24,529 nt of DNA from a virus (lineage: Duplodnaviria; Caudoviricetes). Shown piece after piece: positions 3,904 through 23,733 of this stretch (within the stretch, counting starts at the first letter, position 1; the number at the start of each line of letters is the position of its first letter). The stretch is from positions 1 through 24,529 of IMG/VR virus record IMGVR_UViG_3300037760_000145; one strand, given 5' to 3'. The notes under the pieces are model-generated. The model searched no databases. It worked only from the letters and a program-made list of their open reading frames with translations, and had not been told where the DNA came from. The translations under genes were made by a program, and so were the position numbers.

Positions 3904-5367
3904 ATGTTCTCTCGTCGACACCCACGGACGAATCGGCGCGGGATTGGTGCGCCGTCTGGCGCGTCCTCCCCGATCGCACTCGGCGCCTCAGTCTGGGAGG
4001 ACGGCATCTACCTCGACGTCCCGATGCTCGAGCTATCCGACGGCACGGTGCTCTCATCCGCCATCACGCCGCAGGTCGGCAGCGTCGACCTAATCCCCGT
4101 CAACTCGCCAGAGATTGACGAAGTGGGTATTGGTGGGCGGTCTGCGATATGGCTGCCGCAGTCGTCCCTGGCGCACCTCACCGCGCATGCACTGTCGTCC
4201 TTGGTGTCAGGTGACGATAAGCCGCTGACGGTGATCGCGCGTACCAAACGAGACTATCCCACTGGGCAGCGGTCGGTCTTTGGCTTCGGCAATTCCGCGC
4301 AGAGCGCGAACGACTTTCTATACGGCGCCTTTCCAGCAGGGGCTGGCAACTCGCCGACCTTCGTCAAGGATGCGGTCGCGGAAACGCAAAAGGCGATCAC
4401 GCGCACAGGATCGCTGGACTATACCGATCACGTCGTAGCGTTCGTCACCAACGGCACAACCGGATGGATTTATCTCGACGGCGCGGAGGTGGCGACCGAT
4501 GACCTTGATACGCTAGGGATTACGCCCAACCGCTTCGTGGTCGGCGGGCGCCATACAACCGCCGTCCTCGAGCACATGGGCGGATGGATATCGCACTTCG
4601 CCATGACCGGCCAAGCGCTGTCGCCAACACAGATACAGACCGTTACCACCGCATGGCGCGCTGGCGATCTCGGGTACCCCGGGCAGGGCACGGCGATTCA
4701 GTTTTTCGGCGACTCGATCACGCAAGGCGACAGCGACAACGATCCAGCGATCAACAACGCCACGCGAGGCGGCTTTCGTTACAACCTCTTTGAGTGGGCG
4801 CGCGCGAATCGTCTGCGGCTAAACATGGTCGGACACCGCACGCAGGGGATCTTTGCCGATCCGGAGCACAGCTCAATTGGAGGCGCAACAACCGGACTGA
4901 TCCGGGATTACGTGGACACGTACGTGCCGCAGTATGACCCGCGTGCCGTCTTCGTGCTTGCCGGCACCAACGACTCGGATGCGATTGAGGGGGAGTCGAT
5001 GACTCTCGCTGCGTGGCGGGTGATTTACGAAGACCTGTTGGACAAGGCCAGGACGCATCTAGACGCAGTGCCGGGTCAGTCAGACGGGCGTATCATCGTA
5101 GCCACGATCACCCCGATTGAAACAGGCACGGCGGGCGCGACGGCGATCGGCGACATGAACACCGAGCTAGTGGACATTTGGGACGACCACGACGCAGCGA
5201 ATTCGACCAAGCCGGCGCTCATTCGTTGCGATTTCCACACCGCGATTGGTGCATGGCACGCCAACAACTTCAAGGACGCCGTCCACCCAAATCACACCGG
5301 ATACTCGCTGCTTGGTGACGAGTTGATCGCGCAGGCTGGGAGCTACCTGGAGAGCATTGCGACATGA
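3904..5367 (+). CDS. LamG-like domain + SGNH/GDSL hydrolase (tail spike / surface-polysaccharide deacetylase-like)
   Basis: SGNH blocks: FFGDSITQG, HSSIGG, LAGTND, DAVHPNHTGY. N-terminal half has LamG-like HVVAFV...IYLDG...ALSPTQI. Confidence 0.85.
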   Translation: MFSRRHPRTNRRGIGAPSGASSPIALGASVWEDGIYLDVPMLELSDGTVLSSAITPQVGSVDLIPVNSPEIDEVGIGGRSAIWLPQSSLAHLTAHALSSLVSGDDKPLTVIARTKRDYPTGQRSVFGFGNSAQSANDFLYGAFPAGAGNSPTFVKDAVAETQKAITRTGSLDYTDHVVAFVTNGTTGWIYLDGAEVATDDLDTLGITPNRFVVGGRHTTAVLEHMGGWISHFAMTGQALSPTQIQTVTTAWRAGDLGYPGQGTAIQFFGDSITQGDSDNDPAINNATRGGFRYNLFEWARANRLRLNMVGHRTQGIFADPEHSSIGGATTGLIRDYVDTYVPQYDPRAVFVLAGTNDSDAIEGESMTLAAWRVIYEDLLDKARTHLDAVPGQSDGRIIVATITPIETGTAGATAIGDMNTELVDIWDDHDAANSTKPALIRCDFHTAIGAWHANNFKDAVHPNHTGYSLLGDELIAQAGSYLESIAT

Positions 5368-11990: not shown

Positions 11991-12429
11991 CCCCGTTTGC
12001 CTCTCGCTGCTGTCGCCGTGCAAGCATCTTTCCCTTCAGGCGTTGTTCGAGTGACGCGGTCGCACCAGCGTCGAGCTTCTCCTTGACCACCGCGCCGCCG
12101 GTACGGTTCACCCAGCGCACACGATGCCGCGTGCCGCGCTCGTCGGTCTCGTGCTCGATGACGAGCATGCTCTCGATGGTCCCGATGCCGACTGGATGCG
12201 CGAGGCTTTCGCCGTCCCATCCGGTGTTCTCCAGAGCCTCGAGTGTCTTGTCCTCCGTCTTGGGTGAAAAGTACCCCCAATATGTGATCTCGCGCCCCTC
12301 GTAGTTCGGCGGTGCAAGGATGCGAAACGTGATTGCGATCTGTTCCTTGCCGGTGCTCGTCCTTCCGAGCACGGCATCAACGGCTTGTGCGAGATAGCGG
12401 CCGGGGGGGATAAGGTTGTCGGTGTTCAT
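11971..12429 (-). CDS. Phage ssDNA-binding protein (DUF669-like)
   Basis: IPPGRYLA...STGKEQIAITFRI; acidic-aromatic C-terminus DDSFDF; follows the Sak4-like gene. Confidence 0.75.
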   Translation of the reverse strand: MNTDNLIPPGRYLAQAVDAVLGRTSTGKEQIAITFRILAPPNYEGREITYWGYFSPKTEDKTLEALENTGWDGESLAHPVGIGTIESMLVIEHETDERGTRHRVRWVNRTGGAVVKEKLDAGATASLEQRLKGKMLARRQQREANGDDSFDF

Positions 12430-14039
12430 GCTGCGTGCTCCCTTGTCGTCTGAATCTTGCTGATAATCTTGTCGCGCAGTCGCGCGAGCTTGTGCGGGTT
12501 GCCGGAGTCACGCTGCAAGGCGCTGCGTGCAGCCTCCTGCGAGTCCTCTGGTAGCTGCTCGATGAGCGCCGCCGTCTCTGCTTCGAGCTCCGCTGCTGCC
12601 GCGGGAATTCCCCGCCGCGCTGCTGCGTCGAATTCCGCCCAATCAAGCGGCAGCTCCTCCGGCAATCCGTATCGGTTCTTCGCGTGCCGCGCCGGATGCG
12701 GCTGGGTGTATACGACACGCGAGCCGTCGCCAATCGCCTTGTTTTTGTCGTTGTCGGACTTGTTGAGAAATACTCGGTAGTTCGCGAAGAGCACGGCGTT
12801 CGGCCACGCGCGGAGAAGCTGCGCTGACTTCGCGTTCATCTGCAGCTCATACACGTCGTAGCCGTCCGAGGTCGGGTCATCGAAGTGCCTAATGTGTGCG
12901 TGTGCGAGCACCAGCGTGTGCATGCCGGCGGCGTGGAGCTCCTCGAGCCGTACGAGCAGCCAGCGGATCTCCTCGCGTGCACTGTCGTAGCCCTTGCCAT
13001 AGCCGAAGTCCGAGATGGCGGCCTTCCCGCCCTTCTTGCAGACGGCTTCCCAGATGAGCCCCTCGACCCAATCGGCCGTGTCGATGACGACCGACTTGTA
13101 GTCGTGCTTCTCCGTCTGCAGCGCGGTCACCGCGGCTCTGACGTCTTCCCAGCTGGAGAGTCCGGGGAATCGTGCCGTGTCGATCCGGTTCGTTCCGCGC
13201 GGCTCGCCGACGAAAATCGGGTTCGGTGCCGACGCTGCCCACGTGCTTTTTCCGACGCCTTCGGGGCCGTAGAGGACGACCGAATACGGCTCCTCCACGA
13301 TCCCGCGCGTCACCGATGCGAGACTAATTGCCATTGGTTCATGCTCCTTTTGCATGGATGCTCTTATTGCGCGATAGCCGCCGCAGACGTCCCGCGCGCG
13401 GCAGTAGCAGCGATCACAGTGATCGCCGGCGCGTGGAGGCGTTTCCTCACGCAGCCAGTCGAGATGCACGCGACGCATCTCCGATGCCGTCTCCTGCAGC
13501 TGGTCTGGCGAGATGTCTGCCGCGTCAGGCGTGACCGCTCCAGTCTCCGTCACGTAGTGGTATTCGATGTGCGCGCGCTCGATGCCTGGCCACGCGGACG
13601 CAAGCACGACAGCTCCGCCACGTAGCTGCCAGCTATCGGCCGCGGAGTGGTAGCGGCGCCCCGTCTTGTGGTCGACGACGTACAGTACGGGGCCGTCTCG
13701 CCACGCAACGTCAAGCGAGCCGCATATCTCGTCCGCCTTGCCGCCGTGCTGCACATACTCCCTCTCTATATCGTGTCCGAGCACGCGCCCTCCGCGCTCC
13801 GGGTGCCACGCGACAGCAAGCTCCACGTGCGCACTTGCGGGGATGCGGTCACGGACCCTCGACCACCATGTCTCCACGTCTGGCGCATCTGTCGGCGGTG
13901 CCCGGAAGCGGATGGTTCGCGCGGCCTGCGCGTGGAATTCCGTGCCGCGCGCTGCAGCCGAGCTGCGCTTTTCTGGCGGGAGGTCCAGTGCGAAGCTGTG
14001 TAGGCAATGTACAGCTAGCTCGAGCTTGCTCAGCGTCAT
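12426..14039 (-). CDS. PD-(D/E)XK Cas4/RecB-like exonuclease fused in frame to Sak4-like AAA_24 ATPase
   Basis: N-terminal: C, GTEFH, GSLDV, VVDHKTG, WQL, CDRCYC...C. C-terminal: YGPEGVGKS, VVIDTADW, GYGKGY, AKNRYGLP. Start at 14039 inferred from ATGA coupling. Confidence 0.85.
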   Translation of the reverse strand: MTLSKLELAVHCLHSFALDLPPEKRSSAAARGTEFHAQAARTIRFRAPPTDAPDVETWWSRVRDRIPASAHVELAVAWHPERGGRVLGHDIEREYVQHGGKADEICGSLDVAWRDGPVLYVVDHKTGRRYHSAADSWQLRGGAVVLASAWPGIERAHIEYHYVTETGAVTPDAADISPDQLQETASEMRRVHLDWLREETPPRAGDHCDRCYCRARDVCGGYRAIRASMQKEHEPMAISLASVTRGIVEEPYSVVLYGPEGVGKSTWAASAPNPIFVGEPRGTNRIDTARFPGLSSWEDVRAAVTALQTEKHDYKSVVIDTADWVEGLIWEAVCKKGGKAAISDFGYGKGYDSAREEIRWLLVRLEELHAAGMHTLVLAHAHIRHFDDPTSDGYDVYELQMNAKSAQLLRAWPNAVLFANYRVFLNKSDNDKNKAIGDGSRVVYTQPHPARHAKNRYGLPEELPLDWAEFDAAARRGIPAAAAELEAETAALIEQLPEDSQEAARSALQRDSGNPHKLARLRDKIISKIQTTREHAA

Positions 14040-14197
14040 CGGGAGCACAGTCCCTCCAATCGCCGGTGCGCGTGCTCGAGCTGCGCGTCTGTCGGCAGTC
14101 GCGTTGCCCATCGTGCGCCGGGGTATTTCTCCAGGGCCGCGATCGAGGCGGCTAGCGCGTCCTGCAGATCGCGCGACTTGGCCACGATTCGGATCAT
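14036..14197 (-). CDS. 53-aa hypothetical protein; not in ORF track
   Basis: MIRIVAKSRDLQDALAASIAALEKYPG...; ATGA-coupled on both sides; GAGGTG SD. Confidence 0.6.
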   Translation of the reverse strand: MIRIVAKSRDLQDALAASIAALEKYPGARWATRLPTDAQLEHAHRRLEGLCSR

Positions 14198-16706: not shown

Positions 16707-17068
16707 CCCTTCTAACCCGCATCGAAGCCGCCGCCTTCTGCCGCGTTTCCCCGCGCGCTTTCGACGTGCACGTACGTCCAGGGTTGACCGAGCGCCGCGT
16801 TGGTAGGCGAGTGCTCTTTCTCCGCCAGGAGCTGGAGCAGTGGGCCGTCACCCCGAAGGCTGGAAACTCCGGCAGCGTGCGCCGGGCTACTCGTACACCG
16901 TCCGTTTCACACACGGTGGCCACGAGTACCACCGATCCTGCGGCACAGCAGATCACGAGCAGGCTTCGCGCGAGGCGGCGCGCATCTACGCGGACATCGT
17001 TAACCGAGAACCGGGAGTTCGACAGCGGCGCGGCAGGCGAGAGCATCGACCGCTCGAGGAGCTGTTAG
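16703..17068 (+). CDS. xis: Excisionase (HTH_17-like)
   Basis: LLTRIEAAAFCRVS...RVGRRVLFLRQELEQW; directly upstream of and overlapping int. Confidence 0.75.
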   Translation: MTLLTRIEAAAFCRVSPRAFDVHVRPGLTERRVGRRVLFLRQELEQWAVTPKAGNSGSVRRATRTPSVSHTVATSTTDPAAQQITSRLRARRRASTRTSLTENREFDSGAAGESIDRSRSC

Positions 17069-17907
17069 GCAAATGGCTGGCCTCAGCACCGTTCGACCCC
17101 GGCACGAAGAAGACCTACGAGGTCTATGCCGGTGCGCACTGGCTCCCGCACTTCGATGCGATGCACCACGTCACGGACGGAATGTGCGCGGAGTACGTAC
17201 GGGCACGGCTTCGGTCCGTGCGCGCGCAAACGGTGCGGAAGGAACTGACGGCGCTGCGGGCGTTCTTGCGCTGGTGTCAGGAGACCGGCGAACTGGAGCG
17301 CGAAGTGACGGTGCCGAGCGTGCCGAAGAAAGCGGCGGGCGTGGCCTACGAGAAGCGACGACGCTCGGCTGCGATTGCGATCACCGAAGCCGAGGCGCGG
17401 CGCATGCTGAAGCTGTTGCCGGAGTGGAGCTCCAGCCGGAAGGTGAAGCGCTTTCCGATTCGCGGGAGATTCGAGTTTGCCTACGAGACGGGGCTCCGGC
17501 CCGACACCATAGACCAGCTCAGCGTGCCGGAGCACTGGGACCTCGGCTCGAAAGTTCTGCGCGTATCGCTAGATGTAGACAAGAACGCATGGGAGCGGGA
17601 GTTGCCGTTATCTCCAAGGGCGCTGCGTGTGCTCAAGAAAGTGGCGCCGAAGAAAGGGCGCATCTTCGGGGCGCACGACTACCGGTCGCACATCCGCGCC
17701 GCGGCCGAGGGAGTGCTCGGGAAGCAGCGTGCGAAGCAATTCACCGGCGCACACTTCCGATCGGCGACGGCGACGCATCTGCTACAGGGAGGCGCAAACC
17801 TGCCCGGCGTGCAGTTCCTGCTCGGGCACAAGCGCACCACGACCACGGCGCGCTACGTTCGCCCGTCGTTCGATGCTGCTCGCGACGCGCTGAAGAAGCG
17901 CCGTTGA
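16840..17907 (+). CDS. int: Tyrosine integrase
   Basis: TGLRPD (R), DK, HFRS (HxR variant of HxxR), LLGH, ARY catalytic set; N-terminal arm-binding-like YTVRF...YHRSCGT. Confidence 0.92.
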   Translation: MGRHPEGWKLRQRAPGYSYTVRFTHGGHEYHRSCGTADHEQASREAARIYADIVNREPGVRQRRGRREHRPLEELLGKWLASAPFDPGTKKTYEVYAGAHWLPHFDAMHHVTDGMCAEYVRARLRSVRAQTVRKELTALRAFLRWCQETGELEREVTVPSVPKKAAGVAYEKRRRSAAIAITEAEARRMLKLLPEWSSSRKVKRFPIRGRFEFAYETGLRPDTIDQLSVPEHWDLGSKVLRVSLDVDKNAWERELPLSPRALRVLKKVAPKKGRIFGAHDYRSHIRAAAEGVLGKQRAKQFTGAHFRSATATHLLQGGANLPGVQFLLGHKRTTTTARYVRPSFDAARDALKKRR

Positions 17908-17908
17908 G

Positions 17909-17992
17909 TGCGACGGAGAGGGCTCGAACCTCCACGGGAATTACCCCACAGGCACCTCAAGCCTGCGCGTCTGCCAGTTCCGCCACCGTCGC
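17909..17992 (-). tRNA. tRNA-Leu(GAG), 84 nt, CCA not encoded
   Basis: Acceptor GCGACGG/CCGTCGC + A73; D loop AACTGGCAGA; anticodon stem CAGGC/GCCTG with loop TTGAGGT; long variable arm; T arm GGAGG-TTCGAGC-CCTCT. Confidence 0.93.
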
Positions 17993-17995
17993 TCA

Positions 17996-18178
17996 TTCCC
18001 GGCAGCTTTCTCGGCAGACCGGGGATTCTGCAGTGTTTTTCCAGGAGTTTTCGATGATTCTGGTAGCACCTCAAGCTAGCGCGTCTGCCGAAATCATTAA
18101 GGAATCGCCAGCCGAGATTGCGCCGGGTGGTACCGAAACGTGGCAGGGCCCCTCGATTCCCGGCACGATAGCCGGCAC
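17996..18178. mobile_element. attP: tRNA-derived core with flanking paired arm-type repeats
   Basis: Core 18064-18089 (minus strand GGCAGACGCGCTAGCTTGAGGTGCTA) flanked by inverted ATGATT/AATCAT. Arm pairs: TTCCCGGCAG and TTCTCGGCAG (17996, 18008); TTCCCGGCAC and TAGCCGGCAC (18157, 18169), both with 12-bp period. Confidence 0.8.
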
Positions 18179-23126: not shown

Positions 23127-23395
23127 AGTACCCCGTGAAGCTCAGGAGCTACCGCACGCAGTTTGCCATTGAGACGCCAGTTGGCTTGACGGCGTCATTT
23201 GTCGCGAAGGAGTTCAACCAAGACGGCAACGTCTCGAGCATCCAGCTGCTGGAGGGCGGCGTGGTGCTGATGCGCGGCAACGACAAGGCCTGGATCGTGG
23301 ACGGCCTGAACGTGGGCGAGCTCGACGAGCAGCCGGAAGCACAGAGGCCGAAGGCGCGGCCGGCGGCGTCGACCACCGGAAAGGCGGCGGCCTGA
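23123..23395 (+). CDS. 90-aa hypothetical protein
   Basis: AAGGAG SD; coupled on both sides. Confidence 0.6.
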   Translation: MKYPVKLRSYRTQFAIETPVGLTASFVAKEFNQDGNVSSIQLLEGGVVLMRGNDKAWIVDGLNVGELDEQPEAQRPKARPAASTTGKAAA

Positions 23396-23733
23396 TGTTG
23401 CGCCGCATCCGTCCCCGAAACGACAACGTGTTGATCAAGCTCGACAAGCCGCACGCGGACTACAAAGGCCCGCTCGAACTGCCGGAGAACTACGACGGCA
23501 AGCGAAATATCGACGGACTGTGGGCTACCGTGATCGCAGTCGGCGACGGCTGTGCGTACAAGAACAACTGCGACAAGTGTGGCAGGCCGCGCTATCCCTT
23601 CGGGATGAGTATTCGCGTGGGAGAGCGCGTGCTCGTCGACGATGGGAAGGTGGCCGGCGACAGGGTGTTCGTCGACGGCGAGGAGCATCGAATCGTGCGA
23701 GCGACCGAGCTGCTTGCGGTGATGGAGACGTGA
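23395..23733 (+). CDS. groES: GroES-like co-chaperonin
   Basis: IRPRNDNVLIK, G.LELPE mobile loop, ATVIAVGDG, IRVGERVL, VDGEEHRIVRATELLAV. Confidence 0.85.
   Translation: MLRRIRPRNDNVLIKLDKPHADYKGPLELPENYDGKRNIDGLWATVIAVGDGCAYKNNCDKCGRPRYPFGMSIRVGERVLVDDGKVAGDRVFVDGEEHRIVRATELLAVMET

Follow-up and report, generated by a model that had tools for sequence, protein, structure and literature searches.

Two versions of one tRNA gene, a complete tRNA-Leu(GAG) and an internal 26-bp piece of such a gene, stand beside a phage integrase gene, which raises the question of which of them the integrase recombines and what then becomes of the host's own copy. The window, the whole stretch of DNA analysed here, is an entire virus record of 24,529 bp. 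Its attachment site is best read, with a probability of about 0.78, as a free attP of a break-and-replace type, in which the phage tRNA-Leu(GAG) likely replaces a broken host gene. Genes for a GH25 endolysin, a Sak4-like annealing protein, HTH/repressor-like regulators and the integrase lie to the left of the site, and genes for a DNA methylase, a VRR-NUC nuclease and a replication initiator lie to its right; since phage genes flank it on both sides, the site is present in its free, unintegrated form. It comprises the following features.

16840–17907, plus strand: tyrosine integrase of 355 aa (PF00589, E 3.6e-16; phrog_1, E 2.8e-31)
17909–17992, minus strand: complete tRNA-Leu(GAG), the likely replacement (ARAGORN and Rfam)
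17996–18016, plus strand: arm-type repeat pair on the tRNA side (P′ side), putative integrase-binding site
18014–18031, plus strand: weak terminator-like hairpin on the integrase strand (2 in the region against 0.7 expected)
18064–18089, minus strand: attP common core, tRNA-Leu(GAG) positions ~18–42, exact to cellular genes
18068–18074, minus strand: anticodon loop TTGAGGT within the core, predicted 7-bp crossover region
18093–18098, minus strand: AATGAT motif, 24 nt to the 5′ side of the core loop and conserved in position across the four full-tRNA loci
18157–18177, plus strand: arm-type repeat pair on the far side (P side), from the repeat search

Layout of the site and cellular origin of the core

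The integrase retains its catalytic residues: R220, K248, R307 and Y339 are invariant and H330 nearly so among 69 homologues. A single base pair separates its stop codon from the 3′ end of the tRNA gene, and the tRNA-side arm pair begins 4 bp from the tRNA 5′ end. The arm repeats are 9-bp direct repeats (TTCCCGGCA/TTCTCGGCA at 17996 and 18008; TTCCCGGCA/TAGCCGGCA at 18157 and 18169), and the two pairs frame the 26-mer rather than the complete tRNA gene. They are the sole 12-bp-spaced pairs among 50 plus-strand matches in the window with up to two mismatches; one 12-bp-spaced arm-like pair occurs among 41 matches on the minus strand, elsewhere in the window. Within the integrase gene itself, at 17129–17178, a run X1 contig of depth 2 differs from the window by nine C-to-T changes only, which may be an artefact or DNA damage.

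The complete tRNA-Leu(GAG) is called at 17908/17909–17992 on the minus strand by both ARAGORN and Rfam (48.2 bits). All of its stem pairs are canonical, its discriminator base is A and no CCA is encoded; the anticodon stem reads CAGGC/GCCTG and the loop TTGAGGT occupies 17954–17960. Outside the anticodon stem, its 3′ part equals the host-type half of the related locus L137 at 38 of 41 bases. Thermodynamic folding gives a minimum that is not a cloverleaf (z −1.8), so the cloverleaf call rests on the covariance model, and folding of the neighbouring spacer reveals no unusual structure.

The first-pass annotation had described a complete gene and a 26-bp fragment on the minus strand about 70 bp apart, matching at 22 of 26 positions with four compensatory differences in the anticodon stem. 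This description is borne out: the two are separated by 71 bp, and the four differences amount to two swapped stem pairs (core CTAGC/GCTA, gene CAGGC/GCCT). The core lacks the G that closes the stem. A match of 22/26 is not expected by chance (0 of 1,000 resampled 207-nt neighbourhoods, the best reaching 21), and the next-best match to the 26-mer elsewhere in the window is 20/26.

The 26-mer occurs exactly in about 12,000 stored GTDB stretches (an estimate from the 1/64 scanned). Among the 120 loci listed, identity with the window stops exactly at both ends of the 26-mer in every case, and a full tRNA-Leu(GAG) is present in 119, the remaining one lying at a contig end. Exact cellular matches that end so sharply on both sides indicate that the 26-mer is an internal piece of a cellular tRNA, as had been proposed from its stem variant, which cellular tRNA genes do carry. 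In one contig of run X1 the core is followed by a variable arm like that of the phage tRNA, which means that the sample contains a host-type gene. The core thus both matches the inside of a cellular tRNA gene and is surrounded by arm-type repeats.

The exact match had also been expected to name the host, which it does not. By title, 118 of the 120 listed matches are Actinomycetota, whereas the three taxon-labelled integrase homologues are assigned to Myxococcales, Polyangiaceae and one Anaerolineae; host prediction from the 26-mer was therefore set aside, the integrase kin pointing instead to Myxococcota, which is our best guess. An integrase profile (E ≤ 1e-35) retrieved nothing from 401 genomes of Actinomycetota, the phylum of a Streptomyces locus (G014), or from 251 genomes of the phylum of a Phycisphaeraceae locus (G002), both being weak tests in which just 4–7 candidates per genome were scored, with no positive control. 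Homologues of the Sak4-like protein bear no host labels. This protein, encoded at 12426–14111 on the minus strand, is a 561-aa fusion of a PD-(D/E)XK exonuclease with a Sak4-like AAA_24 annealing domain, and about 20 full-length homologues (39–49% identity) have both domains. The window also encodes, at 23395–23733 on the plus strand, a GroES-like co-chaperonin (Cpn10, E 2e-8), in what appears to be a temperate phage.

Related loci and the position of the crossover

A profile built from the 69 integrase homologues retrieved 20 IMG/VR loci, or 16 distinct ones once identical integrases were merged, and in all 16 a piece of tRNA-Leu directly follows the integrase gene. Twelve carry a 3′ half, which begins at or slightly before the anticodon loop (nine GAG, three CAG), one carries a 5′ half, and three have a full gene together with a short core. 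These three, L125 (CAG), L126 and L127 (both GAG), share the window's order of full tRNA, arms, short core and arms. With L121 and L173, each of which has a 3′ half, and MW202476.1, whose related integrase is accompanied by no recognisable tRNA half and no tRNA gene, the distinct relatives number 19: 14 canonical, three window-like, one with a 5′ half and one unresolved. L122 was left out (weak 25% match). L149 was dropped as tandem host tRNAs of an unrelated low-GC organism, and L174 was dropped as carrying another integrase with no tblastn match.

Other searches added little. A single-protein scan of IMG/VR returned no matches, a closer alignment recovered just four loci, all known already, the plasmid collection gave distant partial matches only, the PDB only distant XerC/D-type matches, and the Atlas search generic integrase clusters only.

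Several relatives deserve description in their own right. L141 (positions 5100–5160; G006, IMGVR_UViG_3300011438_000003) has an attP with the whole 5′ half of a tRNA-Leu(CAG), inverted with respect to the integrase, in a complete 54.6-kb genome with terminal repeats and no full tRNA anywhere; judging by this arrangement, it would repair the host gene from the 5′ side and need a phage promoter. In L121 (4940–5070), a 3′-half attP and a terminator-like hairpin are inverted with respect to the integrase, relative to the 68%-identical L129. In L174 (2300–2750) the unrelated integrase likewise adjoins a tRNA-Leu(GAG)-type 3′ half, which begins at the anticodon loop, and would thus represent a second integrase family at this target. 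In MW202476.1 (L145:4180–4196, about 50478–50494), a 17-bp hairpin follows the integrase gene; its minus strand presumably resembles an anticodon arm with CTC (Glu). ARAGORN found no tRNA in this 77-kb genome, which possibly uses a short core aimed at a dispensable tRNA, with no replacement.

The four short-core loci are alike in geometry. In the window, L125, L126 and L127, one arm starts 69–72 bp from the short-core loop and arms on the other side start 89–105 bp away, and the full tRNA lies outside the arms in all four. Canonical L123, L131 and L142 have arms at 70–72 and 90–91 bp around their own loop, the arm finder having given flanking families in just five of the 13 canonical loci. Each of the four short-core loci also has the AATGAT motif, 24 nt to the 5′ side of the loop in its short core (AACGAT in L125); by analogy with IHF, it is perhaps a site for a DNA-bending host factor. 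Contig L128 stops precisely at the loop, an end that we infer to be an assembly branch between free and integrated forms. Together, the arm spacing, the position of the tRNA outside the arms, the shared motif and the end of L128 place the crossover in 18068–18074. The earlier suggestion that the fragment, rather than the full gene, occupies the crossover position is supported by the arm spacing in these relatives. On this evidence the integrase family is predicted to target the anticodon loop of tRNA-Leu(GAG/CAG), by a mechanism deduced from its sites.

Predicted outcome of integration

The consequences of such a crossover were simulated with cellular tRNA loci standing in for attB: 115 of the 120 listed, five with fewer than 100 bases of flank having been dropped. 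These stand-ins are mostly actinobacterial. ARAGORN calls a tRNA across the loop in 115/115 loci before crossover and in 0/115 at the simulated attL or attR, whereas the phage tRNA is intact in every simulated attL, 71 bp behind the host 5′ half. In simulation, then, integration does as the first-pass annotation had proposed, breaking the host tRNA, with no gene rebuilt, and setting the phage copy directly behind it. The canonical restoration of a gene by an end fragment is not what is found here, the 26-mer being internal and restoring none of the 115. What the sequence does contain are features of tRNA-dependent lysogeny: a tyrosine integrase, an intact tRNA of the same isotype and a core that is, in simulation, too short.

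In the proposed mechanism, the integrase of the temperate phage would recombine within the anticodon loop of the host's tRNA-Leu(GAG) gene, which would not be rebuilt. attL would consist of the host 5′ half, 71 bp of phage arm and the intact phage tRNA, its junction not amounting to a tRNA in simulation, and attR of a phage arm and the host 3′ half, with no tRNA in simulation. Use of the host tRNA promoter appears the simplest reading: the phage tRNA might be transcribed from it through the arm and cut from the precursor, a step to which we give slightly less than even odds, the alternative being an undetected promoter of the phage tRNA's own. Simple scans, weak in high-GC DNA, found no sigma-70-like promoter and no terminator on the tRNA strand of the core-to-tRNA interval; as the promoter scan expects 0.0–0.2 in shuffles, the absence of a promoter means little. 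About 250 bp past the tRNA, on its strand and within the integrase gene, a weak terminator-like hairpin (17661–17644, minus strand) could stop a read-through transcript antisense to the integrase.

CTC is the commonest Leu codon in nine genes of the window (108/294), so losing tRNA-Leu(GAG) would probably cost the host. In some bacteria, tRNA-Leu(UAG) can read CUC and CUU, so that loss of the GAG gene need not kill. At minimum, the lysogen would need the phage tRNA for good growth; the balance tips slightly towards a lysogen that would need this copy to live.

Integrated forms of the phage or its relatives were sought in several ways, inspection of attL and attR in related prophages having been the check suggested at the outset. 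Neither the broken 26-mer nor the exact replacement arm has a match in IMG/VR, the layout scans returned free forms only, and the run X1 contigs, which drop rare forms, contain no attL/attR junction and no joint or loose end at the core; this check therefore yielded no junction from any of the three sources.

It had further been argued that the stem changes keep the replacement from acting as an attB, a claim that stands in part. Compared with all 12 host-type halves, each replacement has at least one anticodon-arm position that sets it apart (stem position 4 in the window, stem position 2 in L126 and L127, the loop in L125). However, the 7-bp loop is identical in the core and full gene of the window, a loop mismatch being found only in L125, so a loop mismatch cannot protect the full tRNA here. 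The short cores of the relatives also depart from the host-type stem profile, and that of L125 has the T of the window's replacement at stem position 4. Changes in the window are concentrated in the anticodon stem (4/10 against 3/58 elsewhere; Fisher p 0.007 per base, 0.046 per pair), in a post hoc test that used a composite in place of the host gene; no clear stem enrichment is apparent in L126 or L127, and L125 is without a close comparator. Protection of the replacement by its stem changes is plausible from these comparisons, and that the altered stem would lower its use as a second attB is about an even bet.

The most serious rival, which we regard as unlikely, keeps the same crossover and makes the tRNA a passenger, derived from imprecise excision or serving lytic translation, while the host tolerates the loss through a second copy or wobble and the lysogen does not depend on the phage gene. 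Imprecise excision has been proposed for the tRNA-Leu beside the integrase of LUZ100 (PMC10134795), the window tRNA is as close to host-type halves as noted above (38/41), and MW202476.1 has neither a half nor a gene. A passenger, however, does not readily explain why the full gene carries the anticodon of the core in all four short-core loci, including the switch from GAG to CAG in L125, or why none of the three near-complete canonical relatives has a full tRNA. The paired stem changes keep 5/5 pairs, which fits selection on a working gene, and in the G005 genome (that of L127) the att-linked tRNA-Leu(GAG) is kept apart from a 26-tRNA cluster.

That the crossover falls instead in the loop of the full tRNA, whose gene would be rebuilt as usual and leave the 26-mer as a relic, is highly improbable. 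The loops are identical, the gene sits where canonical relatives hold their 3′ half, and ARAGORN calls a tRNA at attL in 75 of 115 simulations of this crossover; yet the two arm pairs are found on the same side of the gene, there is no room before the integrase stop codon, the chimeric stem formed with a core-type host keeps only 3/5 pairs, and four loci have retained the short core, along with the motif beside it, despite integrase identities of only 44–66%. That the site is no working attP at all, but an artefact of assembly or a junction left behind by nested or tandem elements, is scarcely credible: the 24.5-kb window is a fragment found in a single run (run X1, possibly its source; no RNA runs with the window sequence are listed), but one contig of that run, possibly the source itself, crosses the site without differences, the same layout recurs in three other contigs and the integrase is intact.

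Break-and-replace integration thus remains the preferred reading of the site. In the four short-core loci, replacement and core also share the same direction, with loop-to-loop distances of 114, 114, 116 and 130 bp. The G005 cluster comprises 26 called tRNAs (L158:7354–11785) on a 137-kb phage contig, about 90 kb from the att-linked gene, and its own Leu(GAG) call looks atypical.

Known systems and exchange between attP designs

The system described here, known from sequence alone, likely works like the tRNA-dependent lysogeny of actinobacteriophages, whose sequence-testable features it displays (Guerrero-Bustamante and Hatfull 2024, PMC10865867). Phages reported there include Fionnbharth (K4), cluster L, Gaia (X, tRNA-Leu-CAA) and Gordonia CQ2/DL. 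They share with the window a tyrosine integrase, a core inside a host tRNA gene, arm pairs, the lack of a rebuilt tRNA and a phage tRNA of the same anticodon, and close relatives switch between canonical and dependent designs. The cores given in that report span 8–17 bp, whereas that of the window is longer, at 26 bp, and extended towards the D arm; the GAG isotype is absent from its Table 2. The tRNA of Fionnbharth is encoded at a distance from attP, overlapping gene 37, and has its own tested promoter (PMC10865867); the window tRNA instead borders both the integrase stop codon and the arm repeats, following the core in line. A separate location for the lysogeny tRNA is also seen in cluster L mycobacteriophages (PMC10865867), and G005 is much like them in this. 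The host of the window is, unlike those of the PMC10865867 phages, probably not an actinobacterium, and dependence was tested in those phages whereas here it is a prediction from the DNA.

Break-and-replace at tRNA-Leu had been credited at first pass to some actinobacteriophages; it holds for those and extends further, to pelagiphages and to Rhizobium and Sinorhizobium prophages, for which an argument about super-integration is also published. Pelagiphages HTVC025P, HTVC119P, HTVC200P and HTVC019P have a mid-gene tRNA-Leu core with sequenced junctions and, as here, no repair of the host gene and a phage tRNA-Leu beside the integrase; in HTVC025P both tRNA and attP lie between integrase and RNA polymerase, and pelagiphage relatives with 5′-half repair recall L141 (10.1101/410191). 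They differ from the window in being T7-like podoviruses of SAR11 with TAG and TAA isotypes; the text covered mentions neither promoters nor which way the tRNA points relative to the core. Rhizobium vTRX32-1 has a 12-bp core in tRNA-Leu, a broken host gene and a diverged phage tRNA-Leu, which is argued to lack the core and so to prevent 'super-integration' (PMC8631192); the replacement in the window, by contrast, has an unchanged loop and an altered stem. Lo5R7ANS-like Sinorhizobium prophages likewise combine a short core in tRNA-Leu with a broken host gene and a diverged phage tRNA-Leu (PMC11476347; break-and-replace in Sinorhizobium prophages also in PMC12429752). Unlike the window's probable host, these hosts are alphaproteobacterial (PMC8631192, PMC11476347), and the Sinorhizobium isotype is UAG (PMC11476347). 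The figures or supplements of the pelagiphage and Rhizobium papers may depict a similar in-line placement.

Islander-type islands (PMC4383910) resemble this family in their tyrosine integrase and anticodon-centred site, and 14 of the 19 distinct relatives use a 3′ half, but the fragment in the window comes from inside the gene and restores no tRNA. Internal fragments are filtered out by Islander, whose tally of 3,919 islands includes 159 with a 5′ fragment (PMC4383910). The L141 design is thus known already, and prophages with internal tRNA fragments would be missed by island finders of this kind. In the literature covered, with most subscription papers outside its scope, no myxobacterial phages of the break-and-replace type were found.

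The integrase tree requires at least two changes of the full-tRNA label. The integrases of canonical L123 and window-like L125 are identical at 305 of their first 320 residues (95%) and then at 15 of 40, a divergence that covers integrase codons about 320–365, including the catalytic tyrosine region; their att regions do not align. Near-identity followed by a divergent tail and an entirely different attP points to the exchange of tail, tRNA and attP as one block. As judged from these two loci, this apparent swap was accompanied by a GAG-to-CAG switch of target.

We tentatively propose, as a possibility that we hold to be less than even, a portable promoter-capture cassette consisting of integrase C-terminus, promoterless tRNA and attP, swapped between phages and with its tRNA activated by integration. 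If so, the host promoter would drive the spare tRNA, located 71 bp past the broken host 5′ half, and transcripts reading through would enter the integrase gene in antisense. One integrase family at one target would then span all the designs, namely repair by a 3′ half, repair by a 5′ half and break-and-replace, with two anticodons. Should the spare tRNA use the host promoter, its expression would depend on integration. No description of host-promoter capture was found in the literature covered, most subscription papers and supplements being outside its scope.

The break-and-replace strategy is already published; what appears new, as far as these loci tell, is the integrase family, the GAG isotype and the apparent attP–tRNA cassette swap. 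With this locus, tRNA-dependent lysogeny would come to include a further integrase family, whose phages are probably myxobacterial, as well as tRNA-Leu(GAG/CAG), with added value in the within-family comparison and in the idea of promoter capture. The L123/L125 pair bears on a question raised with the actinobacteriophages, that of how canonical and tRNA-dependent systems interconvert (PMC10865867).
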